Assembly (NCBI GenBank): GCA_005878635.1
Contig: VBLS01000111.1
Coordinates: 1 to 60,533 of the forward strand
Length of the DNA stretch: 60,533 nt
Direction: 5' to 3'
DNA from: Methanobacteriota archaeon
GTDB taxonomy: Archaea > Thermoplasmatota > Thermoplasmata > RBG-16-68-12
Numbering within the stretch: the first letter of the stretch is position 1; each line of letters opens with the position of its first letter. Positions 4,736-60,532 of this stretch are shown here, piece after piece. Both the position numbers and the translations under genes were made by a program. Below the pieces are notes generated by a model, which worked only from the letters and a program-made list of their open reading frames with translations, ran no database searches and was not told where the DNA came from.

Positions 4736-5389
4736 CTAGCGGAAGTAGGACACGATGGCCCCTTGGATTCCGAGGATCACGAACTGCACCGCGATGGCGG
4801 CCAGAATGAGGCCGATGATCCGCGAGATCGCGTAGGCCCCCATGCGGCCGATTCGACCGAACACCCGGTCCGCTTGGTACAGGAGGACCCAGGTGATGCC
4901 CATCGTGGCGAGGATGGAGCCGATGATCACCGCGATCTGGCCCATGTCGAAGCTCGGATAGGAGGCCTCGGCCATGAGCACCATGACGGTCGTGATGGCC
5001 CCCGGGCCCGCCATCATCGGGATCCCGAGCGGTACGATGCCGGCCGCCTCCCGTTCGAGCGCTTCCGCGCGATCCTGCGCGGTCAACTGGGTCCGGGAGC
5101 GTTCTCCTTGCATCATCGAGAAGGCGATCGTGAAGAGCAAGATCCCTCCGGCGATGCGGAACGCCGGGATCGAGGTGCCGAAGACGAAGAAGATGTAGTT
5201 GCCGACGAAGGCGAAGACGAGCAGCGTGATGGTCGCGGCGAGGATCGCCTTCTGGATCACCCGGCCTTTCATCTCCTTCGGGTACGAGCGCGTCAGGACC
5301 ACGAAGAAGGTCATCGCGCCGATGGGATTCACGATCGCGAAGAGTGCGACGAAGGTCGTGATCGCAAAACTGACGAGGTCCGCCGCCAT
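4736..5389 (-). CDS. MarC family (UPF0056) integral membrane protein
   Basis: 217 aa with six predicted TM segments. N-terminal FVALFAIVNPIGAMTFF and an overall MarC-like pattern. Confidence 0.75.
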   Translation of the reverse strand: MAADLVSFAITTFVALFAIVNPIGAMTFFVVLTRSYPKEMKGRVIQKAILAATITLLVFAFVGNYIFFVFGTSIPAFRIAGGILLFTIAFSMMQGERSRTQLTAQDRAEALEREAAGIVPLGIPMMAGPGAITTVMVLMAEASYPSFDMGQIAVIIGSILATMGITWVLLYQADRVFGRIGRMGAYAISRIIGLILAAIAVQFVILGIQGAIVSYFR

Positions 5390-5417
5390 GCCGGCGCGGC
5401 CCAGACAGCGGCCCGTA

Positions 5418-6182
5418 TTAGAAGGTGTCGAGCACTTTTCGCGCGAACGTCAGATACCCGGTGTGTCCCAGGGGTGCGAAAGAGGGGTGCGTCCCCGCCT
5501 CGTGCGCGACGATCTCCCGTTCGATGATTTCGACGCTTCGGATTTCGACGAAGGTACTCTTCCGAAGGGTCGCGACCGTCCGGTTCACCTGCTCCATGTT
5601 GGGCGAGTAGGACGCGAAGTGCCCGCACGGACGGAGGACGGTCGCGGCACCATCGACCGCCTCCCACGGATCGGGGATATCGAGGATCATCGCGTCCGCG
5701 CCACGCTCGACAACCCCCTTCCGGCCGTCGCCGATCTTGAACTCAACGACGCCTTCCAGATCGGCTGCCGTCACGTTATCGCGAGCCCGGTCGAGGAACT
5801 CGGGACGGACGTCGTAGGTCACGACCCGGCCCTTCGACCCGACGGCATGGGCCAGGGCGAGTGTCAAGGCCCCCGAGCCGGCGCCGATCTCGACGACGAA
5901 GTCTCCCGGCTTGACGTCGCAATTCCATAGGAGGGCGGGCGCGTCCTTCGTCCCGATAATCTGGGCTTCTCGGCGCACGGACTCGATCTCGTCCCGAATC
6001 GACGGGACCATCACCAAGAAGGTCCGATCGCCAATCGTCCACCGGCGGCCCAACAACCCTTGCAACGTGTCCGCGCGGACCACGCCAACCGAAGGGATCT
6101 TCACGGTCTCTCGATCGAGATTCACGAGGTGTTTGGCGCCGGAGGCTTCCAGCAACACGACGCGTTCGAAGGGCGCGTTCAT
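5418..6182 (-). CDS. trmI: tRNA (adenine-N1)-methyltransferase TrmI/Gcd14 family
   Basis: SAM motif VVEIGAGSGALTLALA, the DIPDPW motif, and about 250 aa. Confidence 0.8.
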   Translation of the reverse strand: MNAPFERVVLLEASGAKHLVNLDRETVKIPSVGVVRADTLQGLLGRRWTIGDRTFLVMVPSIRDEIESVRREAQIIGTKDAPALLWNCDVKPGDFVVEIGAGSGALTLALAHAVGSKGRVVTYDVRPEFLDRARDNVTAADLEGVVEFKIGDGRKGVVERGADAMILDIPDPWEAVDGAATVLRPCGHFASYSPNMEQVNRTVATLRKSTFVEIRSVEIIEREIVAHEAGTHPSFAPLGHTGYLTFARKVLDTF

Positions 6183-6235
6183 GACTACCTTGCCCGGGAG
6201 GACCGCGGCCTTTCTCGAATCCGCAGAAAGGTTAA

Positions 6236-7411
6236 ATGGATTCCGTACCTTCCGCGCCCGTCAGCCTGGTTATGTCATCGAATTCTGAGGAGACTCCTCC
6301 GGCTGAAACCTCGCGTCTTCGCCGATTGCGCGAGGTCCTTCGGTTCACACCTCGATCTCGCCGGCAACTCCTGCGGGCCCTGATCGTCACCACGATTTTC
6401 GTCATCTTTCTCGCGGCCCTTGCAACCCTGTTTGGAATCACGATCTTGCAGTACACGCTCGCGGGCTTCCGTCTCAGCAGCATCGTCATCGTCGCCGCGA
6501 TTGGCCTGACCGTCATCTACGGAATCCGTGGGTTCGCGAACTTCGCGTACGGTGACCTGATGACCCTCGGCGCCTACGTGGCCCTGTTCGTCAATATGAA
6601 CATGGCCCTCTCGCTCGTCTGGGGAGCGATCGTCTCGTTCGTGGTCCTTGCCCTCGTCGGAATTCTCCTCGAGGTGTTGATCTTCGCCAGGCTGGAGGGA
6701 CGAGGCCCCGTGCCGCCGATCGTCGCCTCCGTCGGTGTCGGATTGATCGTCCAGAATGGAATCCGGGCGGTCGCGACGACGCAGCAATGGATCTTTCGGG
6801 TCCCTTTCATCCCGGAAATTCCCATTGTTCCGGGCCTCGGGTTCCATTGGATTCGGGACCTTGGGACCGTGGCCGTCGGTCTCGCCTTCATGATTTCCGT
6901 TCACATCCTGCTGACGTACACGAATCTCGGCAAGGCGATGCGGGCGACGGCGGACAACCTTGAGCTTGCGAAGGCAACCGGCATCGATACGAAATTGGTC
7001 ACCTACGCGGCCTGGGCGGTCAGCTGCTCCTTCGCATCGACGGCCGGAGTCTTGCTCGGCCTCATCGGCGTCGTCAGTCCGGTAATCGGCTTCAATGTCC
7101 TCCTCCTCGTTTTCGCCGCGGTCATCGTCGGCGGGATTGGTTCGCCCTACGGGGCCGTGCTCGGCGGCCTCGTGATCGGACTGTCCCAGGAAATGTCGGT
7201 GCCTCTCTTGCTCGGACTCGGGGCCTCGAGCGCCTACAAGGTGGCAATCCCCTTCATCGTCATGATCGCGGTCCTCATCCTTCGCCCTTGGGGCATCGCC
7301 GGACGACCGCCCCCGTTCGCACGGCGGGTCTTCTTCATCGAGAAAATCTTGGACGCGATCGGTGGGCGTCCCGGCGCGGCCCAGGACGCGGAACGAGAGA
7401 GCGGGGGCTGA
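6236..7411 (+). CDS. livH: branched-chain amino acid ABC transporter permease (LivH-like)
   Basis: Polytopic membrane protein with a LivH-like core (IYGIRGFANFAYGDLMTLGAY...). The start is uncertain and has an N-terminal extension. The C-terminus overlaps livM by 50 nt. Confidence 0.8.
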   Translation: MDSVPSAPVSLVMSSNSEETPPAETSRLRRLREVLRFTPRSRRQLLRALIVTTIFVIFLAALATLFGITILQYTLAGFRLSSIVIVAAIGLTVIYGIRGFANFAYGDLMTLGAYVALFVNMNMALSLVWGAIVSFVVLALVGILLEVLIFARLEGRGPVPPIVASVGVGLIVQNGIRAVATTQQWIFRVPFIPEIPIVPGLGFHWIRDLGTVAVGLAFMISVHILLTYTNLGKAMRATADNLELAKATGIDTKLVTYAAWAVSCSFASTAGVLLGLIGVVSPVIGFNVLLLVFAAVIVGGIGSPYGAVLGGLVIGLSQEMSVPLLLGLGASSAYKVAIPFIVMIAVLILRPWGIAGRPPPFARRVFFIEKILDAIGGRPGAAQDAERESGG

Positions 7412-8378
7412 CCGGACGGCCATCGACACCGGGATCCTGACCAACGTCGGTTTCTATGTCTATGTCTCGATCGTCTTTGCATTGCTCGCCCTTGGATTCA
7501 ACCTTCAGTGGGGGTACACCGGACTCTTCAACGCGGGCATCGCCGGGTTCTTCCTTATTGGAGCGTACACAACGGCAATCGCGATCACGCCCCCGACCCC
7601 GCCTTCCATCGGGTACCCGGGCCATCTTGGGGGGTTCTCGCTGCCGCTGTGGCTCGCGGCGATCCTCTCGATGGCCGCGGCCGGCTCCGTGGCGGCGTTG
7701 GTCGCGCTCCCCACCGTCCGCCTTCGGGCGGACTACCTTGCGATCGCGACACTCGCTTTCGCCGAGGTCCTCCGAGTCGTCGCGATCAACTGGGAGTCCG
7801 TCACCGCGGGGACCATCGGGATCTTTCCGATTCCGCAACCGGTCGAATTCAATCCGCCCAGCGCATTCCTGAACGCGATGGTGAAGGTGGCCATCGGCGC
7901 GGGCGTCCTCTTGATCCTCCTCGTGGTCCTGCTCTTCATGACTGAGTCGCCGTGGGGACGCGTCCTCCGCGCGGTCCGAGAGGACGAAGAGGCGACGATG
8001 GCCCTCGGAAAGAACACGTTCCTCTACAAACTCCAGGCGTTCGCCATCGGTGGAGCCTTGATGGGCCTCGCAGGCTGGCTCTTCACCATTACGATCAACT
8101 ACATCGAGCCGTCCGGGAGCTTCGCTCCTGCGATTACCTTCTCCGTGTGGGTCATGGTCATCGTCGGAGGCGCGGGGAATCTACGGGGCGCCATCGTCGG
8201 CGCCTTCGCCATCTACGGATTGGAGTGGCTTTCCGTCCAGCTGAAGGACTACGCACCTCGGGAACTCAAGGACACGATCTTCTACATCCGGCTGATGATT
8301 GTCGGAACCTTGCTCATCGTCCTCATCATCTATCGCCCGGAAGGGATTCTCCGGGAGAAGAAACGGATCTTGCGATGA
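7362..8378 (+). CDS. livM: branched-chain amino acid ABC transporter permease (LivM-like)
   Basis: GFNLQWGYTGLFNAGIAGFFLIGAYT and LRADYLAIATLAFAE are LivM hallmarks. The start is uncertain. Confidence 0.8.
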   Translation: MGVPARPRTRNERAGADRTAIDTGILTNVGFYVYVSIVFALLALGFNLQWGYTGLFNAGIAGFFLIGAYTTAIAITPPTPPSIGYPGHLGGFSLPLWLAAILSMAAAGSVAALVALPTVRLRADYLAIATLAFAEVLRVVAINWESVTAGTIGIFPIPQPVEFNPPSAFLNAMVKVAIGAGVLLILLVVLLFMTESPWGRVLRAVREDEEATMALGKNTFLYKLQAFAIGGALMGLAGWLFTITINYIEPSGSFAPAITFSVWVMVIVGGAGNLRGAIVGAFAIYGLEWLSVQLKDYAPRELKDTIFYIRLMIVGTLLIVLIIYRPEGILREKKRILR

Positions 8379-9151
8379 CCGAACGGAGCGAAGTGCCTCT
8401 AATCCTCAGGGTCCAGGACGTGCGCAAATCCTTCGGCGGGATTCGCGCGGTGGACGACTGTTCTTTGGCGGTTTCGCCGCAGTCCGTCACCGGCCTCATC
8501 GGACCGAACGGAGCCGGGAAATCGACCCTGTTCAATCTCATCGCAGGATTGTACCGCCCCGATGGTGGCGAGATTTGGTTTGGTGACACCCGGATCGACG
8601 GACTCCCTCCCTTCGAGATCGTTCACCTAGGCCTCACGAAGACGTGGCAGATCCCTCACGAACTGCGCAATATGACGGTCCTCGAGAATCTCGTCCTCGG
8701 GTCCAAGCACAACGCGGGAGAGCATCTGACCAACCTGTTCTTCCAGCCGGGCTTGGTTCGGCGAGACGAGAAACGATGGAGGCAGCGGGCCCGTGAAGTC
8801 CTTCGACTGACCCAGCTCGACGCCTTGGCCAACGAACATGCGAAGGCGCTCTCCGGGGGCCAGAAGAAGCTATTGGAACTCGCCCGCGCGTTGATGACCG
8901 ACCCGACCTTGGTCCTCCTCGACGAGCCCGTGGCCGGCGTGAATCCGACCCTCGCGGGCAACCTCATGGACCTCATCGAGAAGCTCCGTCGCGACGGCCG
9001 CACGTTCTTCTTGATTGAACACGACATGAACGTCGTCATGAACCGATGCGATCGGGTGATCGTCATGCACCAAGGGCGCACGATCGCCGACGGGACCCCG
9101 GCGAGCGTGAAGGCGAACCCGGTCGTGATCGAGTCGTACCTGGGGGGATGA
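8375..9151 (+). CDS. livG: branched-chain amino acid ABC transporter ATP-binding protein (LivG-like)
   Basis: ATG at 8375 overlaps the livM stop (ATGA). Walker A GPNGAGKST, signature LSGGQKKLLELARAL, Walker B LVLLDEP. Confidence 0.85.
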   Translation: MTERSEVPLILRVQDVRKSFGGIRAVDDCSLAVSPQSVTGLIGPNGAGKSTLFNLIAGLYRPDGGEIWFGDTRIDGLPPFEIVHLGLTKTWQIPHELRNMTVLENLVLGSKHNAGEHLTNLFFQPGLVRRDEKRWRQRAREVLRLTQLDALANEHAKALSGGQKKLLELARALMTDPTLVLLDEPVAGVNPTLAGNLMDLIEKLRRDGRTFFLIEHDMNVVMNRCDRVIVMHQGRTIADGTPASVKANPVVIESYLGG

Positions 9152-9924
9152 TGATCCTCCTCGAAGCCCAGAACCTCCATTCTGGCTATGGGGAAATGGA
9201 AATCCTCCATGGCGTGTCGATGCGACTCGACAGCCAGGAAATCGTGACGATCATTGGGCCCAATGGGGCCGGCAAATCGACCCTCATCAAGACGATATTC
9301 GGCCTCCTCCGACCGACCGCCGGCCAGGTGACCTTCAAGGGCCTCGACATCACCGGAAAACCGCCTCGGGACCTGGTCCTCGACGGGCTTGCCTACGTCC
9401 CGCAATCGAACAACACGTTCCCGTCCCTCACGGTCCTCGAGAACCTGGAAATGGGCGCCATCACCCGGAGGGCCTCCCCCATCCCGATGCCCTGGAATCG
9501 TAGCCGGGGTTCGGCGACGTCGCCGCGCATGATGAACGACTCGCAGATCCGGAGACGGGCCATCGAGACGATCGCCCTCTTTCCGAACCTCCGCCCGAAG
9601 TTGCGGGAGAGGGCGGGGAACCTCAGCGGCGGGGAGCAGCAGATGGTCGCCCTCGCGAAGTCGATGATGCTGGACCCCGACATCCTCCTGATCGATGAGC
9701 CCTCGGCGGGCCTCGCCCCGAAACTCGTGGATATGGTGTTCTCCAAGATCGTCGAGATCAATGGAAGCGGGACCTCGGTCGTGATGGTGGAGCAGAACGC
9801 GAAGAAGGCACTCGCCATAGCGAACCGCGGATACATTCTGGAGACGGGCAGGAACCGCTATGAGGGGGCCGCAAAGGAGCTCCTCCAAAACACCGACGTT
9901 GCGAAACTCTACCTTGGCGGCTAG
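9148..9924 (+). CDS. livF: branched-chain amino acid ABC transporter ATP-binding protein (LivF-like)
   Basis: ATG at 9148 overlaps the livG stop (ATGA). GPNGAGKST, LSGGEQQMVALAKSM, ILLIDEPS. Contains an extra Ser/Arg/Pro-rich segment. Confidence 0.85.
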   Translation: MMILLEAQNLHSGYGEMEILHGVSMRLDSQEIVTIIGPNGAGKSTLIKTIFGLLRPTAGQVTFKGLDITGKPPRDLVLDGLAYVPQSNNTFPSLTVLENLEMGAITRRASPIPMPWNRSRGSATSPRMMNDSQIRRRAIETIALFPNLRPKLRERAGNLSGGEQQMVALAKSMMLDPDILLIDEPSAGLAPKLVDMVFSKIVEINGSGTSVVMVEQNAKKALAIANRGYILETGRNRYEGAAKELLQNTDVAKLYLGG

Positions 9925-22562: not shown

Positions 22563-23726
22563 ATGCGGCTCACCCGCGAGCAGCGCCGCCTGCGGGACGA
22601 CGGCACGCCGGCGCAGCGCAAGGCAATGCAGATCTTGCTCGCCCTCTCCCGCCTGTCGGAAGCGGAGCGTCTCGTCCCCATCACCTCGGCGCACGTGTCG
22701 GGCGCCTCCTACAAGATGATCGGCGATCCGGGGCTTGAGTTCCTCGAGGATTTCGCGCGCGACGCCCGAGTCACTGTCCCGACGACCGTCAACCCACTCG
22801 GCACGGACCTCCGGCAGTGGAGGGAGCTTGGCATCCCCGCGGAGTTCGCAGGGAAGCAGGAACGGATCGCCCGCGCCTACGAGTCGATGGGCGTCCGTCC
22901 GAGCTTCACCTGCACGCCCTACCTCGTTGGCGCACGGCCATCGTTCGGCGAGCACGTCGCATGGGCCGAATCGAACGCCGTGTGCTTCGCGAACTCCGTC
23001 CTCGGCGCACGGACGAACCGCGAGGGAGGCCCCTCGGCCCTGGCGGCCGCGATCGTCGGCGCGACGCCGGAATACGGGCTCCACAAGGACGAAGGCCGTT
23101 CGCCGACCGTTCGCGTGAATGTGACTACGAAGCCGCACGGGCTCGATTTCTCCCTGATTGGATTGGTCGCGGGCCAGCAGGTCGGCGATGGCCTCCCGTT
23201 CTTCCGCGGGTTCCGCGGTTCCGAGGAGGACTTGAAATGGCTCGGCGCGGCGCTGGCATCGACGGGCGCTTGTGCGATGTTCCACCTCGAAGGCGTCACC
23301 CCAGAGGCGCGGCGGGCCCGCACCGCAGGCTTGCCCTCCCTCACGATCTCACGGGCCGATCTGGTGCAGGCTCAGAGGTCCTTCACCGACGGGACGAAAG
23401 CGGACGTGATCGCCCTCGGCTCGCCCCAACTATCCGGGCAAGAACTCTGGAGCGTCGCGGACCGCGTGCGACGGAAGCCTCCCCGGATTCCGGTCTGGGT
23501 CTTCACGAGCCGCGCCGTCCGAGACGAGAACCCGGAGCCGGTCGCGGCGATCGAGAGCCACGGCGGCCGCGTCCTCGCGGACACGTGCCTCGAGGTCACG
23601 CTGCTCGAGCATCGATTCGGGACGGTCGCCACCCCTTCGGGAAAGGCCGCGTACTACCTGCCGAGCCTCTGCAAGCAGAAGGTCATCCTCGACGAGCTCG
23701 ACGCCCTCCTGGAGCGGTACGGATGA
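22563..23726 (+). CDS. aconitase X catalytic (large) subunit, phosphomevalonate dehydratase-like
   Basis: DUF521/AcnX pattern (ITSAHVSGASYKMIGD...FTCTPYL...WAESNAVCFANSVLGARTNREGG). 387 aa. Confidence 0.75.
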   Translation: MRLTREQRRLRDDGTPAQRKAMQILLALSRLSEAERLVPITSAHVSGASYKMIGDPGLEFLEDFARDARVTVPTTVNPLGTDLRQWRELGIPAEFAGKQERIARAYESMGVRPSFTCTPYLVGARPSFGEHVAWAESNAVCFANSVLGARTNREGGPSALAAAIVGATPEYGLHKDEGRSPTVRVNVTTKPHGLDFSLIGLVAGQQVGDGLPFFRGFRGSEEDLKWLGAALASTGACAMFHLEGVTPEARRARTAGLPSLTISRADLVQAQRSFTDGTKADVIALGSPQLSGQELWSVADRVRRKPPRIPVWVFTSRAVRDENPEPVAAIESHGGRVLADTCLEVTLLEHRFGTVATPSGKAAYYLPSLCKQKVILDELDALLERYG

Positions 23727-24520
23727 AGCTCCGAGGACGCGGGATTGCATCGGGCTTTGCGGAAGGGATCGCCTTCGTGATTCGCGTCCCTTTCTCCTTC
23801 GTCGGCGGCGCGGACCCGGCCACGGGCACCGTCCTCGATGCCGCGACAGGCGGCGCCAACGAACGCCTCGACGGCCGGATCTTCGCGTTCCCGCACGGCA
23901 AAGGGAGCACGGTTGGCTCTTACGTCATCTACGGCCTCGCGAAGAGGGGAGTCGGCCCCGCGGGCATCGTCAACTCTGCGGCCGAGGGAATCGTCGCGGT
24001 CGGCGCGATTCTCGCCGGAATCCCGATGGTCGATCACATCGACGTCGGGGGCCTGGAGAACGGCGACACGGTCCGTATCGACGGGGACCGTGGGACCGTC
24101 GAGCTCCCCGGGGTCCGCGCACGACCCGTCGTCTCCGTCGTGCTGAGAAACGGCGGTCGGATCCTCCTCGTGCGACGAAGTCCATCGGTTGGGACCTTTC
24201 GCGGTCGCTGGTCGGTCATTTCGGGGTCCATCGAAGGCCGCGAGGATCCGAAATCCCGCGCGATCCGAGAGGTGCGAGAGGAGACCGGCCTCCGAGGAAT
24301 TCGGTTTCGTGCGAATGCGGCCCCGATCCATGCCCGCGACGGCGCCACGATGTTCGTCGTCCACCCCTTCCTCTTCGACGCCCCGAGCCGCCGCGTGCGC
24401 CTCGATTGGGAGAATGTCGAGCACCGATGGATTCGGCCGGAGGAGATCGGTCGCTACGAAACGGTCCCGCGACTTCCCGACGTCGTCGCGGCGGTGCTCC
24501 GCATGGGGCGGGAGTCCTAG
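23723..24520 (+). CDS. aconitase X swivel (small) subunit fused to a Nudix hydrolase domain
   Basis: ATGA overlap with the large subunit. The N-terminal ~128 aa are DUF126-like (FAFPHGKGSTVGSYVIYGLAKRG.GPAGIV). The C-terminal part has a perfect Nudix box GSIEGREDPKSRAIREVREETGL. Confidence 0.75.
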   Translation: MKLRGRGIASGFAEGIAFVIRVPFSFVGGADPATGTVLDAATGGANERLDGRIFAFPHGKGSTVGSYVIYGLAKRGVGPAGIVNSAAEGIVAVGAILAGIPMVDHIDVGGLENGDTVRIDGDRGTVELPGVRARPVVSVVLRNGGRILLVRRSPSVGTFRGRWSVISGSIEGREDPKSRAIREVREETGLRGIRFRANAAPIHARDGATMFVVHPFLFDAPSRRVRLDWENVEHRWIRPEEIGRYETVPRLPDVVAAVLRMGRES

Positions 24521-27500
24521 CGACCCGAGGCGGCCGACCCGCCGGACGAACCGGGGATGACCCGGTCGACCTCCTTCTCGAGCAAGGTCAATTGGTGCGG
24601 ATCGAGGGCCGACGGATTCACGGAGAGGAGGAATACCCCGTTGTTGATCGCGACCTGGTCGCGGATCGATTGCACGAGCCGCAGGACCGTGAGGAAATTG
24701 TTGTTCGTCACCAGGTACTCGATCGCGTCGAGGAAGATGACGCCCTTCTCCCGGGCGAGGAACTGCTCGACGGCCAAGGACAACTTCTCCAGGTCTTTCG
24801 GTCGGACGGTGTCTTCCTTCCCGACGTTGCTGAGCCACACGATCGGGAAGGGGGGACCGCCCAGGCGCTCCCGGACTTTCTGCGGGAATGTCCGCGTGAT
24901 GACCATCGCGCCTTTCCCCGCCTTCTGGGCGATCTCGAAGAGCCGGTAGGCCTCGTCCGGAACCGGTTCCTCGACGAGATAGGAGGAGGAATCTTTCAGG
25001 AGGGGCGGAGCGTCGTCCTCCGAAGCCGCACGATTTGGCGCGGGGGCCCGAGTTTGGGGAGCGCCGCAAGATGGACACTCGGCGGATCCCGCGGGAATGA
25101 GCTCGCCGCAGGCGATGCATGCGACGCGCGACGGCGCGGCCGTCGCCGGCGTGGACAGGACGAAGCCGCAGACCGGGCACTTGTCCGCGCCGGGAGGGAT
25201 CTCCGCGCGACAGCGGGGACACGGCATCGCCTTCGTGGCGACGGGTTCGCCGCATCGCGGGCATCGGCGGGTCGACGGGGCAATGGCCGCTCCGCACGTG
25301 GGGCATGGGATCGAGGTGTCCGTCTTCGCCGCGAGCGCGTCCAGGATTCGAACCGCATCCGCGACTTGGAGGCCCTCGATCTGCGCGAGCTCTTGCTTCG
25401 TCGCCGCGCGCAACGCCGCGAGGCTCTTGTAGCCTGCATCGAACAGGGCCATCGCCTTCGCGACCGTGATGCCCGGGATTCTCGTGAATTCGCGGAGGGC
25501 CTCGGACATGTGGACCGGAGTCACGCCGATCGTCACCGAATGTCCGTCCACATCGTTCCATTCCACGACGTACTCGGCTTCGACCGGTCCGTCCGTGAAC
25601 GTGATCCGACGCGAGCGGGTTTCCCGACCCATGAATTCCTTCTGTCCCCCGATCAAGGCCGCCAATTCCTTATTCGCCTTGACGACCGTGATGAGGAAGT
25701 CGTCCACTGCCAGATCGATCTCTTTCCGCATCTGTTGGATCCGGCGGATCAACTCGCGCGCGTAGGCCTCGGCACGAAGGTCGGGAGTCACGCGCAGGTC
25801 GAGGTAGAGCTCGCCGTGCGGCGTGGGCACGCGGACGACCTCGGAGGGCATCGCCTTCTCAAATCGGACCATCGACGGGTCGATCGCGACGACCTGGCCT
25901 TCGACGCCGACTTCGAGTCGGCCCTTGTCGAGCGCCTTCTTGATCTCCTCCGGCGGGCGACCCTCGAGGAGCTTCACGATCTTCGGCTGGAGGACCCGAT
26001 AGGCCTTGCCGATCGCCGCCCCGTCCGGCTTTACGACGAGGGCCATCCCGGGGAATTCCTCGTTCGCTTTGAGGACCGCGAGCGCCTTCGCGTTCGCCTG
26101 TTCGAGGAAGATGCCCCGCAACGTCTCGAGGGCCATGGCCGCCTCCGGCGTCGGCGCTTGGACCGCAATCAGTTTCAGCGGCCACCGGAGCTTGCGTCCT
26201 CCCTTCTGGCGCTCCTTCGAGACGATCTCGACGAGTTCCTGGACGATCGACATGGACCTCTCGAGGTCCGGCTGGAGTCGCTCCTCCTGAGCGGAGGGCC
26301 AATCGAGCAGGTGCACGCTGAGCTTCTTCCCGTCCAGTCGCTGGTAGACCGCTTCGGCGATGAACGGCGTGACCGGCGCGAGCAGGACCGCGACGGTGCG
26401 CAACGTCTCGAACAAGACATGGTACGCCGCGAGCTTGTCGCGATCCTCGGCTTCCGTCCAGGTCCGGCCCCGGACGAGTTTCACATACCACCGCGAGAGG
26501 TCATCGAGGATGAAGGACTCGACCGACCGAAAGGCCCGATGCAAACTGTAGGTCGCAAACTCCGCATTCACGGTCATCTTGAGGCCTTCGAGCCGGGAGA
26601 GGAGCCATCGGTCCTCGGGTCGCAGATGGCCGGAGATCGAGGCGAAGTCCGGCGCCGTCGGATCGAATCGATCGAGGACCATGTAGGTCGTCGCAAATCG
26701 CAGGACGTTCCAGAGGATGTTCAGAGTGCGGTTGGCGTTGCGAACCCCGTCTTCTTGGAACGTCTTGTCGTCCCAGAGCGCGTTCACGGAGAGCATGTAG
26801 AATCGAAGCGCGTCGACCCCGAATTTGCGCACGACGGTCTCCGGCTCGATGACGTTCCCGAGGGACTTGTGCATCTGCCGGCCGTCGGGGCCGTTGACCC
26901 ATCCATGCATGAGGACGCTGTCGTACGGCGCTCGGTCGAAGGCGACGACGCCGGCGGCGAGCTGCGAGTTGAACCAACCCCGAGTCTGGTCGGGACCCTC
27001 GACGATCCAGTCCTCCGGCCACCACCGGCGGAACTCGTCGTCCCGCGCGGGATATCCGAGGCTCGCCCAGCTCGCCACCCCGCTGTCCCACCAGACATCG
27101 AGGATGTCGGGGACCCGCCGCATCTCCTCGCGGCACCTCGGACAGGGCAGGACGACCCGGTCGATCCCCGGCCGGTGCAGGTCCATGCCGTCCGCGTACC
27201 CCTGCGCCTTCCGCAACGCATCCGAGGAGCCTACGACGATCCAGTGCCCGCACTTCGTGCACCGCCAGATGGGGAGCGGAATCCCCCAGTACCGCTGGCG
27301 GGAGAGGCACCAATCCCGCAGGTTCTGGGTCCAGTCCATTTGACGGGCCGCGCCCGCCCATTCCGGATACCACGCGACCCGGCGGACCTCGTCGACCATT
27401 TTCGCCTTGATCGGCGCGACTCGCAGGAACCACTGGACCGTCGCGCGGTAGAGGATTGGCGTCTTGCAGCGCCAGCAGTGACCGTAGGCATGGACCAGCG

Positions 27501-28674
27501 TCTCCGCGGCGAAGAGAGCGTTCGCGGCGCGGAGGTCCTCGATGATCCCCGCGTCCGCCTCTTTGACGGGCTTGTCGGCGTACACGCCCGCCTCGTTCGT
27601 GAAATGGCCCCGTCCGTCGACCGGACTGAAGACCGGTAAGCCGAGGGTCTGGCCGAGTTCGAAATCTTCTGGACCGTGACCCGGCGCGCTGTGGACCAGA
27701 CCCGTGTGCTCCGCCTCGACGGTGCTCGAGGAGACCACGCGATGGACCCATTCCCCCGTCACGGTCGCCTGATAGGGGACCTTGTCCGCGAGCGGGTGCG
27801 CATAGGCCAGGCCGACCAGCTTGTCGCCGGTCGTCGTCTCGGCGACCTCGTAGGCGGTCACGCCGCCGCGGGCCATGACGGTGGCAAGCGTCGCCTCCAT
27901 CGTCCAGAGGAATTCCGCGGACTCTCCGCGGACCACCTTCACCTTCGAGTAGACGAACTGCGGATGGACCGCGATTGCCAGATTCGCGGGGAGTGTCCAA
28001 GGAGTCGTCGTCCAGATCAGGAGGGATTCGGCGGGTCGGTCCCGGAGCGGGAACTTGACGTAGATCGAGGGATCCGTCTCATCCGAGTACTCGACCTCCG
28101 CGTCGGCCAGGGCGGTCTCGTCGCGGGAGCACCACTGGGTCGAGCGGAGGGCCTCGTAGAGCAGCCCGCGTTCGTGGGCGCGCCCGAGGGTCCACCACGC
28201 CGCCTCGATGAATTCGTTCCGGATCGTCATGTAGGGCCGGTCCCAGTCCATCCAGATCCCGAGGGCCCGGAACTGACCCGTCATCTTGTCCAGCAGGTCG
28301 ACGGCGAAGGTGCGACAAGTCGAGACGAATTTCTCGATCCCCAAGTCCTCGATCTCCTTCTTGTTCGTGATGCCGAGCGTCTTCTCGACCTGGACCTCGA
28401 TTGGGAGGCCGTGCATGTCGTACCCGGGCTGGTCTCGCACGCGGAAACCGCGCATCCGACGAAAGCGGATGACCGCGTCTTTCAGGGACTTGTTCAGGAC
28501 TTGGCCGAGGTGGATCGAGCCGGTCGTGTACGGCGGGCCGTCGCCGAAGTAGAAGTCCTCCCCCTTCGAACGCGCCGCGACCGTCTTCGCGTAGACCTTC
28601 GCGCGATTCCAAAATTCCTGGACCTGGCGCTCCACCTCTAGGGGGGCGTACGTCTTCTCCGCCTGCTTGATCAT
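24517..28674 (-). CDS. ileS: isoleucine--tRNA ligase with a ~330-aa C-terminal HhH / triple zinc-ribbon / DUF835-like extension
   Basis: Class I motifs PPYTTGSIHLGQ (HIGH) and MHKSLGN (KMSKS), plus an editing domain and an archaeal-length core of about 1054 aa. The reading frame then continues without a stop through 331 further residues. Confidence 0.9.
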   Translation of the reverse strand: MIKQAEKTYAPLEVERQVQEFWNRAKVYAKTVAARSKGEDFYFGDGPPYTTGSIHLGQVLNKSLKDAVIRFRRMRGFRVRDQPGYDMHGLPIEVQVEKTLGITNKKEIEDLGIEKFVSTCRTFAVDLLDKMTGQFRALGIWMDWDRPYMTIRNEFIEAAWWTLGRAHERGLLYEALRSTQWCSRDETALADAEVEYSDETDPSIYVKFPLRDRPAESLLIWTTTPWTLPANLAIAVHPQFVYSKVKVVRGESAEFLWTMEATLATVMARGGVTAYEVAETTTGDKLVGLAYAHPLADKVPYQATVTGEWVHRVVSSSTVEAEHTGLVHSAPGHGPEDFELGQTLGLPVFSPVDGRGHFTNEAGVYADKPVKEADAGIIEDLRAANALFAAETLVHAYGHCWRCKTPILYRATVQWFLRVAPIKAKMVDEVRRVAWYPEWAGAARQMDWTQNLRDWCLSRQRYWGIPLPIWRCTKCGHWIVVGSSDALRKAQGYADGMDLHRPGIDRVVLPCPRCREEMRRVPDILDVWWDSGVASWASLGYPARDDEFRRWWPEDWIVEGPDQTRGWFNSQLAAGVVAFDRAPYDSVLMHGWVNGPDGRQMHKSLGNVIEPETVVRKFGVDALRFYMLSVNALWDDKTFQEDGVRNANRTLNILWNVLRFATTYMVLDRFDPTAPDFASISGHLRPEDRWLLSRLEGLKMTVNAEFATYSLHRAFRSVESFILDDLSRWYVKLVRGRTWTEAEDRDKLAAYHVLFETLRTVAVLLAPVTPFIAEAVYQRLDGKKLSVHLLDWPSAQEERLQPDLERSMSIVQELVEIVSKERQKGGRKLRWPLKLIAVQAPTPEAAMALETLRGIFLEQANAKALAVLKANEEFPGMALVVKPDGAAIGKAYRVLQPKIVKLLEGRPPEEIKKALDKGRLEVGVEGQVVAIDPSMVRFEKAMPSEVVRVPTPHGELYLDLRVTPDLRAEAYARELIRRIQQMRKEIDLAVDDFLITVVKANKELAALIGGQKEFMGRETRSRRITFTDGPVEAEYVVEWNDVDGHSVTIGVTPVHMSEALREFTRIPGITVAKAMALFDAGYKSLAALRAATKQELAQIEGLQVADAVRILDALAAKTDTSIPCPTCGAAIAPSTRRCPRCGEPVATKAMPCPRCRAEIPPGADKCPVCGFVLSTPATAAPSRVACIACGELIPAGSAECPSCGAPQTRAPAPNRAASEDDAPPLLKDSSSYLVEEPVPDEAYRLFEIAQKAGKGAMVITRTFPQKVRERLGGPPFPIVWLSNVGKEDTVRPKDLEKLSLAVEQFLAREKGVIFLDAIEYLVTNNNFLTVLRLVQSIRDQVAINNGVFLLSVNPSALDPHQLTLLEKEVDRVIPGSSGGSAASGR

Positions 28675-55651: not shown

Positions 55652-57222
55652 CGCTGCGGCGCTCGGGGCCTTCCCCAGCCGCCGCCTCCGGGCGTCTCGA
55701 TGATCAGGAGATCGTCCCGCCCCAGAGGGAGCGTGACCTTGGCCGGGAGCGTCTTCCGCCGGCCCTTTCGGACGAGCAGATTTCGCCCCGGTCGGCCGTC
55801 TTCGCCGCCTTTCAAGCCTCGGGGTCTCAGGGATCGTCGCTCGGAGAGGATCGACGCGGTCCCGTCTCGACCGAGGAACCGGACGGACCGACGCACGCCA
55901 TCGCCTCCCGCGAAACGGCCGGTCCCTCCCGATCCCGGGATGAGGCGATATTCCTCGACCCGAAGGGGCATCGCGAGCTCCAACGCCTCGATGGGCGTGT
56001 TCCGCGTATTCGTCATGTGGGTGTGGATGCCGGACATGCCCCGCCGGAACGGGAGAGCGCCTTCGCCGCCTGCGATGGTCTCGTAGTACGAGAATGGAGG
56101 GGGACCTGCCATGCCGATGGTGAGGTTGTTCATCGTCCCCTGGCTCTGGGCCGGTACGCGGTCCGCCAGGGGCTCCGAGAGTGCGAGGAATAGGACGTCA
56201 ACGATTCGCTGGGAGGTCTCCACGTTTCCTGCGGCCACCGCGGCCGGGCTTCGGGGTCGGACGAGCAGGCCTTCCTCTGCGAGGACGCGGACCGGTCGAT
56301 ACGCGCCGGCGTTGCGCGGCGCGTCGGGATCCGTGACGCATCGGACGACGTAATACGTGGCGCTCAAGGTCACCGCGAACGGAGCGTTCACGTTCCCGCG
56401 GACCTGGCGATCCGTGCCCTGGAAGTCGACGGTCAAGCCCGAGCCGCCAATCGTGACCTCGGCACGGATGCGGATTTTCTGCGAATCGCGGGAGCCCGCG
56501 GACTCCAGGTAATCCTCGGCGGCCCATGTCCCTCGCGGGAGCGTCTGGATGGCGGATCGCATGCGCCGTTCCGCGTGGTCGAGGAGTTCCCCGATGTCGG
56601 ACCGAAGGCGGGTCATGCCCCACTTGTCCGCAAATTCCGCGAGACGCCGCGCGCCGAGTTCATTGGCGGCCACCTGCGCGCGGAGATCGCCGAGTCGTTC
56701 AGTGGGATTGAGGGTCTCCTGCCGGAACCGGTCGAGGACCGAGCGCCGCTCCTCGCCGCGGTCGAGGAACTTCTGCGGCTCCAGGACGATGCCTTCCTCC
56801 TCCAGATGCACGGCGTCCGCGGGCATCGATCCGGGCGCGATCCCGCCGATGTCTGCGTGGTGGGCGCGATTCGCCGTGAAGCCGACCAATTCGGTCCGGA
56901 CGAACACGGGCCGGACAAGCGTCACGTCCGGGAGGTGCGTCCCGCCTCGATAGGGATCGTTCAGGATGACCTGGTCGCCCTCCCGCAACGTGCCGGGGAA
57001 ATCCCGCAGGACCGCGTCCACTGCGGCGGGCATCGAGCCGAGATGGACCGGGATATGTTCGGCCTGCGAGACCATCCGGCCGGCCTCGTCGAACAAGGCG
57101 CAACTCGCGTCCATCCGCTCCTTGATGTTCGGCGAATAGGCGCTTCGTTTCAGCGCAACGCCCATTTCCTCCGGGATGAACGCGAATCCGGTCCGCAGGA
57201 TCTCGAGTTCGGCCGGATTCAT
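55648..57222 (-). CDS. hyuB: hydantoinase B/oxoprolinase family protein
   Basis: EILRTGFAFIPEEMGVALKRSAYSPNIKERMDASCALFD...HIPVHLGSM...NDPYRGGTHLPD. Confidence 0.85.
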   Translation of the reverse strand: MNPAELEILRTGFAFIPEEMGVALKRSAYSPNIKERMDASCALFDEAGRMVSQAEHIPVHLGSMPAAVDAVLRDFPGTLREGDQVILNDPYRGGTHLPDVTLVRPVFVRTELVGFTANRAHHADIGGIAPGSMPADAVHLEEEGIVLEPQKFLDRGEERRSVLDRFRQETLNPTERLGDLRAQVAANELGARRLAEFADKWGMTRLRSDIGELLDHAERRMRSAIQTLPRGTWAAEDYLESAGSRDSQKIRIRAEVTIGGSGLTVDFQGTDRQVRGNVNAPFAVTLSATYYVVRCVTDPDAPRNAGAYRPVRVLAEEGLLVRPRSPAAVAAGNVETSQRIVDVLFLALSEPLADRVPAQSQGTMNNLTIGMAGPPPFSYYETIAGGEGALPFRRGMSGIHTHMTNTRNTPIEALELAMPLRVEEYRLIPGSGGTGRFAGGDGVRRSVRFLGRDGTASILSERRSLRPRGLKGGEDGRPGRNLLVRKGRRKTLPAKVTLPLGRDDLLIIETPGGGGWGRPRAPQR

Positions 57223-59150
57223 CGGGGCACCTCGACCTCGAGAAGGCCCAATCGATCCACGGTGAGGTGCGCGCCGGGAGGAACGACAGTGGTCGCATGG
57301 TCCTCCGCCACGATGGCGGGACCGTCGATCTCGCTCCCGACGCCGAGGCGCGACCGTTCGTGGACGGGGACATCATGCCATCCGTCGTCGAAAAGAACCC
57401 GGCGACTCCGCGGACGCGAACCGCGATGAAGAGGCGCACGCGGCCGGCGGAACGGACGTGGCATGCGGACCACGAGGCGGGCCGCGACGACCTCGATCGC
57501 TTCGCTCCGCGAGGCGTATCCGTACCGAAGCCGATGCGCTCGATGGAAGGCCCGCCTCAAGTCGCCGCGGATCGGAACGTTGATTTCGTAACTCTGCCCC
57601 TTGAATCGTAGGTCGACGCTCGATTCGAATTGAGCCCGACCCACATCGTGCCCTTGCGTCCGCAGCACCGAAATCGCCCGGTCACGGAACTCCTCGATCG
57701 CCGACTCGATGACCGTCTCGGCTCGCTCCAACGGTCGGAGGACGCTTCGCCCATACTCGGCTCGGATCGGAGAAATCAGGATGCCGTAGGCCGAGAACGC
57801 CCCAGGGAGGAAGGGCACGAGGACCGTCCGGACCCCGAGCTGTTGGGCGAGGGCGCATGCGTGCATCGGCCCGGCGCCGCCGAAGGCGAGCAACGCAAAA
57901 TCCCTCGGGTCAAGGCCGCGACGGGCGAGGACCAGCCGCATCGCCTTCGCCATCGAGGCTTCGACAACCCGCTGGACGCCGAGGATCGCTTCGTCCCGGG
58001 AAAGATGCAGGGTCGATGCGAGGGCCTCGATCCCTTTTGTGGAGAGGGACCTGTCGAGGGGAAGCCGACCTCCGAGGAGACTCGGTCCAAGGGACCCGCC
58101 GACGAGGTCGGCATCCGTCACCGTGACCTGGGACCCGCCCGCACCGTAGGCCATGGGCCCCGGGGTCGCGCCGGCGCTCTCGGGTCCGACTCGAAGCGCG
58201 CCTCCCGGGTCAATCCACGCAAGGCTCCCTCCTCCCGCGCCCACGGACTCGATGTCGATGACCGGGATCGCAATCGGGAAGGTGTCGATCACGGCATCGG
58301 TCGTCCAGGTCGGCTCGCCCTTCGGGAGTGCGGAAAAATCTGCGCTGGTCCCTCCCATGTCGAAGGTGACGAAGTTCCTCGAATGGCTCCCTCGAGACAG
58401 GGCCGCGCCGGCGGCGACGCCGCCCGCGGGACCGCTGAGGACCAAGTCAACCGGTCGTCGGGCGACGGCCGAATGGACGGCCACGCCGCCTCCCGATTTC
58501 ATCACGAAGAAGTCCTTTCGAATTGCGGCCCTCAACTCGGTCAGGTAGCGGCCGACGAGCGGTTTCAGGTAGGCGTCCAACACGGTGGTCGAAGCGCGCT
58601 CATACTCTCGAAATTCCGGGAGGACTTCGTGGCTCATCGAGACGGGGAGGTCGCCAAGGGCATCGCGGAGGATCCGCTCGTGGCTCGGTCGCATGAAGGA
58701 GAAGAGCAGGCAAATCGCCACGGATTCCGCCTTTCGGGAACGCACCTCCCTGGCAATTCGGCGGGCCTCCCGCTCCGTCAGAGGGCGCAACGGGCGCCCT
58801 CGCGCGTCGACGCGTTCGTCGGCTCCCAGGCACATCTCCGAATCGACCGGCGGAGACGCCCGTGTGACGTGGAAGTCGTACAAGTTCGGACGGTCCTGGC
58901 GGCCGATGATCAGCAGGTCTTCGAAGCCCGCCGTCGTCACGAATACCGTGCGGGCCCCTTTTCGTTGCAGGATCGCGTTCGTGGCGACCGTCGTCCCGTG
59001 GGCCATGCCGCCGGCCCCGAGCTCCCGCATCCCGTCGACGACCGCGCGGGAGGGATCGGGCGTCGACGGAACCTTGGCCGTCACGACCTCGCGGCCGCGG
59101 AACCCGACGAAGTCCGTGAAGGTCCCGCCGACATCCACGCCCACGTCCAT
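57219..59150 (-). CDS. hyuA: hydantoinase A/oxoprolinase family protein
   Basis: MDVGVDVGGTFTDFV... and FDMGGTSADF motifs. Start taken at ATG 59150. The upstream 450 codons of the 1093-aa ORF overlap trpB2 out of frame and are not coding. Confidence 0.85.
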   Translation of the reverse strand: MDVGVDVGGTFTDFVGFRGREVVTAKVPSTPDPSRAVVDGMRELGAGGMAHGTTVATNAILQRKGARTVFVTTAGFEDLLIIGRQDRPNLYDFHVTRASPPVDSEMCLGADERVDARGRPLRPLTEREARRIAREVRSRKAESVAICLLFSFMRPSHERILRDALGDLPVSMSHEVLPEFREYERASTTVLDAYLKPLVGRYLTELRAAIRKDFFVMKSGGGVAVHSAVARRPVDLVLSGPAGGVAAGAALSRGSHSRNFVTFDMGGTSADFSALPKGEPTWTTDAVIDTFPIAIPVIDIESVGAGGGSLAWIDPGGALRVGPESAGATPGPMAYGAGGSQVTVTDADLVGGSLGPSLLGGRLPLDRSLSTKGIEALASTLHLSRDEAILGVQRVVEASMAKAMRLVLARRGLDPRDFALLAFGGAGPMHACALAQQLGVRTVLVPFLPGAFSAYGILISPIRAEYGRSVLRPLERAETVIESAIEEFRDRAISVLRTQGHDVGRAQFESSVDLRFKGQSYEINVPIRGDLRRAFHRAHRLRYGYASRSEAIEVVAARLVVRMPRPFRRPRAPLHRGSRPRSRRVLFDDGWHDVPVHERSRLGVGSEIDGPAIVAEDHATTVVPPGAHLTVDRLGLLEVEVPR

Positions 59151-59233
59151 GGTCGGCCGGATTGTCCGAGACCTCAAGAGACTTCGCGCGGCTAATCCGA
59201 CGACTCGGGAACGGATTGCGGCCAGCGGGGTGG

Positions 59234-60532
59234 TCAGGGCCCGTTGCTGCTCAGGTTGCCGGCGAGGAACTGCGCGTAGCCCTCGAGGTCCAACAGCCCG
59301 TGGCCGCTGTAGTTGAAGGCGATGACCGTCTCCTCGTTCCGCTTCTTCGCCTCGAGCGCCAGGTCGATCGCGCCGCGGATCGCGTGGCAGGTCTCCGGCG
59401 CCGCGATGAGTCCTTCCGTCTTGGCGAAGATCTCGCCGGCCTGGAAGGTGCTCACCTGGTCGACCGCGCGCGGCTCGACGAGCCCTGCGTCCAGGAGGAC
59501 GCTCAGGGTCGCCGCGGTCCCGTGGTACCGCAGGCCGCCCGCGTGGATGCGCGGCGGTACGAAGGTGTGGCCGAGGGTGTGCATCTTCACGAGCGGCGTC
59601 ATCTCGCCGGTGTCGCCGAAGTCGTATTCGTATCGGCCCTGGGTCATCGAGGGGACCGATGTCGGCTCGACCGCGATGAACCGCGTCTCCGAACGCCCGT
59701 GGATCCGCTCTCCGATGGTCGGGTAGGTGAAGCCCGCGAAGTTGGAGCCTCCCCCGACGGAGCCGACCATGTAGTCCGGCGTGATGTCCGCGATCTCGAA
59801 CTGCTTCTGCGCCTCGAGGCCGATGACCGTCTGATGCATCAGCACGTGGTTCAGGACGGATCCGAGGGAATACCGCGTGTTCGGGCTCGTCACCGCCGTC
59901 TCGATCGCCTCCGAGATCGCGACGCCGAGGGATCCGGGATGGTTCGGGTCCTGTGCGAGGATCTTCTTCCCCACGTTCGTCCGGTCGCTCGGGCTCGGGA
60001 TGACTTCCGCGCCGAAGAGCCGCATCATGTACTTCCGGTAGGGCTTCTGGTCGTACGAGACACGGACCATGAACACCTTGGACCGGAGGCCGAAATAGTT
60101 CGTCGCGAGGGCGAGCGCCGATCCCCATTGGCCGGCCCCCGTCTCCGTCGCGAGGGCCTCGACCCCTTCCTTCGCGGCGAAGTACGCCTGCGCGATCGCG
60201 GTGTTCGGCTTGTGGGATCCGACCGGGGAGAGATCCTCCCGCTTGTAGTAGATCCGCGCCGGCGTTTTGAGGAACGCCTCCAGGCGGGAGGCCCGGTACA
60301 GCGGCGTCGGTCGGCCGAATCGGAGGTAGGCCTCGCGCAGTTCTTCGGGGATCGGCTCCGAGCGGTTCGGGCTCATCTCCTGGCGGATGAGCTCCTTCGG
60401 GAACAGCGGCTCGAAGGCCTGCGGCGGGACCGGCTCCTTCGTCCCGGGGTGGAGGTAGGGAGGGAAGGGAGCGGGCAAATCCGGCAGGATGTTGTACCAC
60501 GCCCGCGGGAGGTCGTCCTCATCGAGGAGGAT
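59234..60532 (-). CDS. TrpB-like PLP-dependent enzyme (TrpB2 family), 5' end truncated by the window edge
   Basis: The frame stays open to the window end (..[27 protein letters not shown]..). PLP lysine region [14 protein letters not shown] and GGGSNFAG. Confidence 0.8.

Follow-up and report, generated by a model that had tools for sequence, protein, structure and literature searches.

Isoleucyl-tRNA synthetase fused in frame to helix-hairpin-helix, zinc-ribbon and DUF835 domains in a Thermoplasmatota archaeon

Contig VBLS01000111.1 of a Thermoplasmatota archaeon (assembly GCA_005878635.1) – analyzed here over its 60,533 nucleotides (nt), and referred to below as the window – carries an isoleucyl-tRNA synthetase (IleRS) gene, ileS, whose reading frame runs on past the end of the synthetase for 331 residues, through a helix-hairpin-helix (HhH) domain, three zinc ribbons, and a domain of the DUF835 family. 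This raises the questions of whether the two parts belong to one protein, what the appended domains are, and what they might do on a housekeeping enzyme. An earlier note, made from the letters alone, had described the arrangement, named an assembly indel that removed a stop codon as a possible source of error, and suggested that an internal methionine could allow separate expression of the tail.

We consider it nearly certain that the gene is real as a fusion and that its parts are correctly identified; the fusion itself is beyond doubt because of its profile E-values, its conservation in more than 50 genomes, and ratios of nonsynonymous to synonymous substitution (dN/dS) of 0.03-0.22 in the tail. 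As to function, we tentatively favor a non-enzymatic interaction or signaling module carried on the tRNA-binding body of IleRS, and weigh this against other explanations below.

The fusion gene and its parts

The gene and its segments are arranged as follows, with scores of the predicted local distance difference test (pLDDT) taken from a model of the tail.

24517 to 28674, minus strand: whole fusion gene, IleRS-HhH-zinc ribbon-DUF835, 1385 amino acids (aa), from the open reading frame (ORF) list and domain matches; stop codon at 24517-24519
25513 to 28674, minus strand: IleRS core, residues 1-1054, with Rossmann catalytic domain and CP1 editing insert, anticodon-binding domain, and DUF5915 (TIGR00392, PF00133, PF08264, PF19302, 8c9d)
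28501 to 28512, minus strand: HIGH signature, variant HLGQ, residues 55-58 (motif inspection and alignment)
26863 to 26877, minus strand: KMSKS signature, variant QMHKS, residues 600-604, second Lys retained
25333 to 25494, minus strand: (HhH)2 domain, residues 1061-1114 (HHH_5 match, five-helix model)
25252 to 25305, minus strand: putative zinc ribbon 1, CPTC-x10-CPRC, residues 1124-1141 (sequence; DZR, Zn_Ribbon_1, Zn_ribbon_15)
25168 to 25221, minus strand: putative zinc ribbon 2, CPRC-x10-CPVC, residues 1152-1169 (sequence; best Zn_Ribbon_1 stretch 1152-1172)
25066 to 25119, minus strand: putative zinc ribbon 3, CIAC-x10-CPSC, residues 1186-1203 (sequence)
25009 to 25044, minus strand: disordered linker, residues about 1211-1222 (pLDDT below 50 at tail residues 157-168)
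24553 to 24987, minus strand: DUF835/iKaiC domain, residues about 1230-1374 (PF05763), predicted to have a RecA/KaiC-like alpha/beta fold without a P-loop
24520 to 24558, minus strand: last 13 residues (PGSSGGSAASGR), apparently unconstrained (dN/dS 0.5-2.3, pLDDT below 50)

The whole protein scores 925.3 bits against the TIGR00392 ileS equivalog (cut-off 621.4), the solved IleRS 8c9d aligns to residues 11-1004 (E = 3e-187), and Pfam places tRNA-synt_1 at residues 18-632, Anticodon_1 at 688-835, and DUF5915, the IleRS C-terminal domain, at 861-1051. The editing motif TTTPWT lies at residue 222, and the solved editing domain 1wk8 matches residues 196-399 (E = 2e-27). Both catalytic signatures are variants, HLGQ retaining the first His and the Gly of HIGH. 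Among 54 full-length fusions from related genomes the HIGH motif is most often HLGT (n = 26) or HLGQ (n = 14), and the KMSKS motif PMSKS (n = 24) or QMHKS (n = 20); the first Lys of KMSKS is absent throughout the fused clade. Judged from its sequence, the core is a complete archaeal-type (type 2) IleRS with catalytic motifs present as variants, and it is predicted to be competent.

In the same frame, which reads ...VTIGVTPVHMSEALREFTR... across the junction, Pfam places HHH_5 at residues 1061-1114, DZR, Zn_Ribbon_1 and Zn_ribbon_15 at 1122-1173 and beyond, and DUF835 at 1240-1368, and every Pfam match of the protein exceeds its curated cut-off. HHH_5 (PF14520) scores 37.5-39.5 bits against a gathering score of 27 (E = 3e-9 in the full protein, 8e-10 in the tail alone), Zn_Ribbon_1 (PF13240) 50 bits against 25, DZR (PF12773) 48 against 27, and DUF835 (PF05763) 108.5-111.6 bits against 33.1, covering profile positions 6-135/136 (E = 3e-31 to 3e-32). 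Six CxxC motifs, starting at residues 1124, 1138, 1152, 1166, 1186 and 1200, give exactly three units, putatively C4 zinc ribbons. The architecture given in the earlier note – a single ORF of 1385 aa with its core at residues 1-1054, an HhH-like stretch at 25333-25485, three CxxC-x10-CxxC ribbons at 25066-25305, and a DUF835-like end domain at 24553-24990 – is thereby confirmed by the ORF list, Pfam, and relatives, with HhH and DUF835 coordinates agreeing within a few codons; the Pfam search of the tail that it had proposed finds HHH, zinc-ribbon and DUF835 families all above their cut-offs.

An AlphaFold2 model of the tail, built with a 113-sequence alignment, has a mean pLDDT of 89 and a predicted TM-score (pTM) of 0.53. 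The folds of the individual domains are confidently modeled and their mutual arrangement is not fixed, because pTM is only 0.53 and tail residues 157-168 are disordered. The HhH part is modeled as five helices at tail residues 2-61 (pLDDT 95-98), and its profile matches the N-terminal extension of haloarchaeal ribosomal protein eL32 best (E = 1e-7), NusA AR1/AR2, the N-terminal domain of RadA/Rad51, and the (HhH)2 domains of Hel308, Pol beta, and the RNA polymerase (RNAP) alpha C-terminal domain.

The DUF835 model resembles the RecA/KaiC superfamily in Foldseek comparisons, with a probability of 1.00 for FlaH/ArlH (4yds; root-mean-square deviation (rmsd) 4.4 over 164 columns), for the KaiC-like protein PH0284 (2dr3; rmsd 3.2 A over 172 columns, target-normalized TM-score 0.53), and for RecA (2zrf); the whole tail is colinear with Rad51/RadA over 330-370 columns in its top matches (E = 3e-7). 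A Walker A motif, G....GK[ST], is found in none of 55 tails, and at the P-loop position the model has strand beta1 (tail residues 176-181), a 4-residue loop (VPDE), and a helix at 186-197. A canonical ATPase is ruled out because there is no Walker A motif and the beta1-alpha1 loop has only these four residues. A Walker-B-like Asp (D262) remains, and lies among conserved DUF835 residues that include W226, RPKDLEKL, D262/E265/Y266, NNNF, R278, Q281 and R284/D285. DUF835 has been classed as iKaiC, an inactivated KaiC-like domain that is an output of archaeal response regulators of the REC-DUF835 and REC-PAS-DUF835 types (PMC5847659), and the predicted fold and missing P-loop of the window domain agree with that label. 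Both the motif content and the model thus describe an inactivated RecA/KaiC fold. RadA itself was considered as an identity for the tail and rejected (TIGR02236 at 19-22 bits against a cut-off of 361, no Walker A).

The fusion recurs widely in related genomes. Used as a query, the tail retrieved 129 relatives, many of them contig-end fragments with DUF5915, HhH and DUF835 in one protein. Across a set holding one genome for each species, tail relatives are encoded at 193 loci, 80 of which were kept for analysis. In 54 of these 80, all from Thermoplasmatota species representatives, the counterparts of IleRS residues 1-1054 and of the tail share a single unbroken ORF of 1333-1490 aa – the ileS genes of at least 1300 aa for which the earlier note had proposed a search – and in another 16 the fusion ORF stays in frame up to the contig end. 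Because these independent species-level assemblies are uninterrupted, an indel that removed a stop codon is excluded. We estimate from base composition that a 331-codon stop-free run would arise by chance at the GC content of about 68% with a probability of roughly 1e-3. The junction aligns gap-free down to about 40% identity, and the Met at which separate expression had been proposed to begin (VHMSEAL) is not conserved (LHMSEAL, LHLSEAV, LYIKEAT, LRLREGV, MNLKDSI).

The remaining loci comprise nine with a fragmented ileS and one partial. The fragmented cases are probably frameshift errors, because the breaks are scattered in position, a single assembly series (MFD) accounts for five of the nine, and FEN1 and Cpn60 genes are also split there, on the contig shared by loci L001 and L064, the latter itself fragmented. 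Two candidate exceptions were examined and rejected: P0103, a possible stand-alone HhH-DUF835 gene and tail donor, is a gene-call fragment inside an intact 1439-aa ORF, and the frame of P0224 (locus L086), a possible tail-less close relative, is interrupted by one stop within the HhH and then continues. In L086, from a soil metagenome, this stop (PGITAS*AMRLFDAGY, at about 8217-8222) is followed by an open frame through HhH and ribbons to the contig end, and could be a sequencing error, a pseudogene, or a read-through site. The only close relative truly lacking DUF835 is P0217 (L087), which keeps the HhH and two ribbons. Its locus (GCA_030157145.1) has the IleRS-HhH-two-ribbon gene at 5001-8471 (plus strand) and a convergent 355-aa gene at 8535-9602 (minus strand), which has faint helix-turn-helix (TrmB/MarR) matches and occupies the position of the missing part of the tail.

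The complete domain set recurs in over 100 clusters of 1324-1499 aa returned by a full-length protein search; those that have a name are labeled only "isoleucine--tRNA ligase". The statement in the earlier note that no IleRS of this architecture is known therefore holds for the searchable literature, in which we found no published description, and fails for the sequence databases. Makarova et al. 2017 (mBio 8:e01959-17), which reportedly describes iKaiC, may contain a prior mention.

Conservation, domain partners and dead-core paralogs

Against seven close relatives, dN/dS is 0.03-0.22 for the HhH, zinc region, linker and DUF835, and 0.12-0.27 for the C-terminal domain of IleRS itself, which serves as the comparison range; all tail regions other than the last 13 residues are under strong purifying selection. 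Median identity is highest in DUF835 at 57% (minimum 49%), above the synthetase core at 53%, and falls to 42% in the HhH, 28% in the zinc ribbons and 15% in the linker, the least conserved region. HhH and DUF835 are always present in fused orthologs, the count of ribbons ranges between 0 and 3, and a second HhH or TPR repeats appear in members farther away. Pairwise identities of core and DUF835 are tightly correlated (Mantel r = 0.90, reached by 0 of 999 permutations), as expected for a single old, vertically inherited fusion. The named carriers are all Thermoplasmatota (Thermoplasmata, Methanomassiliicoccales, and metagenome-assembled genomes (MAGs) of Methanomassiliicoccus), the closest being the soil MAG contig VBLT01000120 with 93% tail identity. 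From these alignments the fusion appears to be old, vertically inherited, and widespread in Thermoplasmatota.

DUF835 is found in many other proteins, and an exhaustive search gave 2689 representatives at E <= 0.001. Among the best 150 of these 2689, which are the ones analyzed, 29 are IleRS-type and 121 are not, and 98 of the 121 are larger proteins with DUF835 as their C-terminal module, so that the description of the family in the earlier note as mainly stand-alone does not hold. The partners in these non-IleRS proteins are HisKA_7TM, REC, PAS, CBS, V4R, TPR, extracellular PEGA/CarboxypepD_reg, and some DnaA-like and AAA ATPases; a DnaA ATPase domain of bacterial type occurs in four proteins (best E = 1e-59), and DUF7504 in eight. 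Two DUF835 stretches stand in tandem in 20 of the 121, an arrangement that recalls the double-domain build of KaiC. Because it is mostly C-terminal and lies behind sensor-type partners, DUF835 appears to behave as an output or transmitter module, and in the fusion IleRS occupies the usual input position.

The wider family includes paralogs in which the synthetase core has decayed. We sampled 18 divergent full-length IleRS-type representatives with a C-terminal DUF835, of which 12 have lost KMSKS. Six are intact and of the same type as the window protein, with HIGH and xMSK[ST] present and with TTTPWT in five (VTCPWT in P0252); five are intermediate or giant forms of 1436-2329 aa that have lost KMSKS; and seven, of 1289-1451 aa (P0256, P0261, P0269, P0271, P0274, P0295 and P0340), are fully degenerate, without HIGH, KMSKS or the editing motif. 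Five of these (P0256, P0271, P0274, P0295 and P0340) were compared with TIGR00392 and score 200-331 bits. Pfam scores in the seven degenerate paralogs and in the window protein are as follows.

tRNA-synt_1 (catalytic): paralogs 54-145 bits, window 411
Anticodon_1: paralogs 88-101 bits, window 114
DUF5915: paralogs 43-64 bits, window 66
HHH_5: paralogs 33-87 bits, window 37
DUF835: paralogs 104-116 bits, window 108

By these profile matches, the tRNA-recognition half, the HhH and DUF835 are kept as a unit after loss of the catalytic motifs. Because the unit is retained in paralogs with a dead core, the fusion probably has a role apart from aminoacylation, doing something other than charge tRNA. 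Some of the dead-core forms are labeled "class I tRNA ligase family protein" in databases, and they should not count as synthetases in metabolic reconstructions.

The two degenerate paralogs whose location was examined, P0256 and P0271, lie outside the housekeeping ileS locus. P0256 adjoins a gene for archaeosine tRNA-guanine transglycosylase, located upstream, and 13 nt 3' of it is a stand-alone 82-aa AsnC_trans_reg gene (RAM-type, amino-acid-binding; 9912-10160 in L088 and 12678-12926 in L089), followed by genes for an acyl-CoA dehydrogenase and a class III aminotransferase. This arrangement, seen in two near-identical loci only, suggests an amino-acid- or tRNA-related context. Among the giant forms, P0246 (L091, 10001-16990) is an IleRS-like-HhH-DUF835 protein of 2329 aa that has lost HIGH and KMSKS and kept TTTPWT; about 1150 residues separate its DUF5915 and DUF835, in which Pfam recognizes one HhH only. 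It lies in an S24e-DUF359-Rpb7 neighborhood, as does the normal fused ileS of L002; at each of these loci a gene for a KaiC-like ATPase stands at a distance of about 5 kb. A 351-aa TrmB-like gene lies convergently downstream of P0246 (17266-18321) and is similar to the 355-aa gene of L087.

Possible roles of the tail

In the reading that we favor tentatively, an IleRS predicted to be competent carries a C-terminal (HhH)2, three C4 zinc ribbons and a P-loop-less DUF835, joined by flexible linkers. The HhH and ribbons would act as adaptors, and DUF835 would bind a partner – a RecA/KaiC-type assembly, or its own oligomer – and may signal to it whether the synthetase body has tRNA or isoleucine bound; alternatively, control could run in the other direction, with the partner acting on IleRS through DUF835.

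Several observations count against such a module. The core of the window protein is itself intact, so that the evidence from dead-core paralogs transfers by homology only, and no dead-core paralog could be shown to share a genome with an active IleRS. The 60-kb window holds neither a KaiC-like ATPase gene nor a second DUF835 gene, and no partner was identified. Within about 6 kb of the fused gene a KaiC-like gene occurs in none of the 80 related loci; the only ones, in the wider flanks of L002 and L091, are the two search queries themselves, which found no further ones across related loci. The sequence-level link to KaiC is weak: the ArlH/FlaH profile match has E = 0.005-0.025, Pfam gives no PF06745 match in the window protein, and hhalign of the tail profile with one KaiC-like protein gives a probability of 0.2%, itself a weak comparison with a single-sequence template. 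Among PDB sequences the tail profile has matches in its HhH and IleRS C-terminal parts only, and none in DUF835. Lastly, the tail may act in tRNA or DNA binding, nucleic acid being a common ligand of HhH domains and zinc ribbons.

The module could have a more pointed role, which we think decidedly doubtful: the IleRS body would be the input domain of an archaeal system sensing amino acids or uncharged tRNA, relayed through iKaiC to a KaiC/RecA-type assembly. To our knowledge, archaea lack the RelA/SpoT alarmone system and GCN2, and how they sense amino-acid starvation is an open question, for which the fusion is a concrete and testable candidate link. If the sensing role were true, the fusion would be a functional analog of GCN2 or RelA in a phylum with neither, the dead-core paralogs would be dedicated sensors, and the window protein would be housekeeping enzyme and sensor at once.

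Of the alternatives to an interaction or signaling module, the first is that the HhH, ribbons and RecA-like domain form a cis-acting tRNAIle-binding appendage that improves aminoacylation efficiency, like Trbp111/EMAPII-type or lysine-rich extensions. Appended tRNA-binding domains are well known to be common in synthetases, the tail comes directly after the C-terminal domain of IleRS, nucleic acid is frequently bound by HhH domains and by zinc ribbons, the tail is colinear with RadA, and RecA-fold domains can bind single-stranded nucleic acid. However, the tail has no basic character: the HhH has a median charge of -2 (pI 5.3), the zinc/linker region one of -3 and DUF835 one of -1, and because the tail is neutral to acidic it does not look like a generic RNA-binding appendage. 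The variable number of ribbons, the greater conservation of DUF835 than of the core (unusual for a non-specific binder), the retention of the tail in paralogs without aminoacylation motifs, and the pairing of DUF835 elsewhere with sensor domains instead of RNA-handling enzymes also speak against an appendage of this kind, and we regard it as unlikely.

A structural scaffold appears improbable to a like degree. Here DUF835 would oligomerize IleRS, or tether it to a multi-synthetase complex, the ribosome or EF1A, with channeling and no signaling. It is well established that RecA/KaiC-fold domains typically form rings or filaments; the nearest folds to DUF835 (FlaH, PH0284 and Rad51) belong to oligomeric proteins, and its tandem occurrence in 20 of 121 representatives points the same way. 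The nearest sequence match of the HhH is to an extension of a ribosomal protein, eL32, and the cyanobacterial CAAD domain is a precedent for a lineage-specific synthetase anchor (PMC4893482). Pure channeling nevertheless leaves unexplained why the module is retained in dead paralogs and why DUF835 stands behind 7TM, REC, PAS and CBS inputs, and the lack of an identified partner weighs on a scaffold as well.

DNA-binding moonlighting, in which the HhH and ribbons would let IleRS regulate transcription of its own or of amino-acid genes upon isoleucine, is very unlikely. The matches of the HhH profile to the (HhH)2 domains of RadA, Hel308, Pol beta and the RNAP alpha C-terminal domain are in its favor, as are the AsnC-type ligand-binding gene 13 nt downstream of one dead-core paralog, the amino-acid catabolic genes beyond it, and the established autoregulation of E. 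coli AlaRS as a precedent; set against these, the HhH shares its neutral to acidic character with the NusA AR repeats, which bind protein, many orthologs can dispense with ribbons, and the strongest constraint falls on DUF835 and not on the putative DNA binders. Finally, an artifact – an assembly indel that merged ileS with a DUF835 gene, or a tail expressed from an internal start – has next to no chance, as the in-frame stop of L086, the nine fragmented loci, and the occasional annotation of the tail alone (P0103) are outweighed by the 54 independent intact ORFs, the more than 100 protein clusters, the scatter of the breaks (five in the MFD series with its split FEN1 and Cpn60), the placement of P0103 inside an intact ORF, the gap-free junction with its unconserved Met, and the co-divergence of core and tail, so that comparison of related genomes refutes it.

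Neighboring genes and comparison with known systems

The fusion gene has this convergent neighbor:

23723 to 24520, plus strand: AcnX swivel and Nudix fusion gene, convergent with ileS (Pfam; context only)

The same convergent neighbor is present in L001-L003 and in L084. In the window its stop overlaps that of ileS by 4 nt (24517-24520), with no intergenic room for terminators, and an AcnX gene (22563-23726) overlaps its start by another 4 nt. A 1077-aa ORF lies antisense to ileS (24406-27639, plus strand), and there are numerous further ORFs of 200-600 aa that overlap real genes; these long antisense ORFs look like the stop-poor frames expected at about 68% GC, and not like genes. At 57219-60500 (minus strand) a 1093-aa ORF has hydantoinase/oxoprolinase A domains that begin only at residue 453, and its first 450 or so residues have no Pfam match at E <= 1e-5; this could be an N-terminal fusion or a start called too far upstream.

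The window protein shares with type 2 IleRS (TIGR00392; 8c9d, 1ile) the same complete core, including CP1 with TTTPWT, the anticodon-binding domain and DUF5915. The solved enzymes end at about residue 1030, whereas the window protein has 331 extra residues with three further kinds of domain, and its signature motifs are the variants HLGQ and QMHKS. RadA/Rad51 has the same order as the tail, an N-terminal (HhH)2 with a RecA-fold core behind it, and 1pzn and 2bke are among the matches of the HhH profile; the tail differs in having no Walker A, in a post-Walker B region shortened to TNNNF, and in the zinc ribbons inserted between the domains. Haloarchaeal eL32 with its N-terminal HhH (9l94, 1s72) likewise belongs to archaeal translation and bears an added (HhH)2, but it shares the HhH only and has neither zinc ribbons nor DUF835.

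Synthetase-derived sensors are known in the HisRS-like domain of GCN2 and in the regulatory subunit HisZ. As in these, a synthetase scaffold is combined with a putative regulatory module, and in the wider family of the window protein dead motifs go together with retained tRNA recognition. The dead scaffold is found only in the seven paralogs elsewhere, whereas the core of the window protein is intact, and its module is predicted to be an inactive RecA/KaiC fold instead of a kinase or metabolic enzyme; a sensing function would be carried over here by analogy.

Class I synthetases with a clade-restricted domain, thought to add localization or regulation, include the IleRS with GNAT of NCBIfam NF040702 and the cyanobacterial CAAD synthetases (PMC4893482), although their domains and the positions of these differ from those in the window protein. 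Membership of NF040702 was considered for the window protein and rejected (425 bits against a cut-off of 1999). Closest in the tail itself are the iKaiC/DUF835 output proteins (PMC5847659), which have the same Pfam family, the same C-terminal position and the same missing P-loop; in the window protein, however, the N-terminal partner is an essential housekeeping enzyme instead of a receiver or sensor, and HhH and ribbons stand between the two. The fusion can be described as a synthetase with a lineage-specific appended module, or just as well as an iKaiC output domain whose input has no precedent, and, as its fused partner has a known ligand, it offers a first tractable biochemical handle on the uncharacterized DUF835/iKaiC family.

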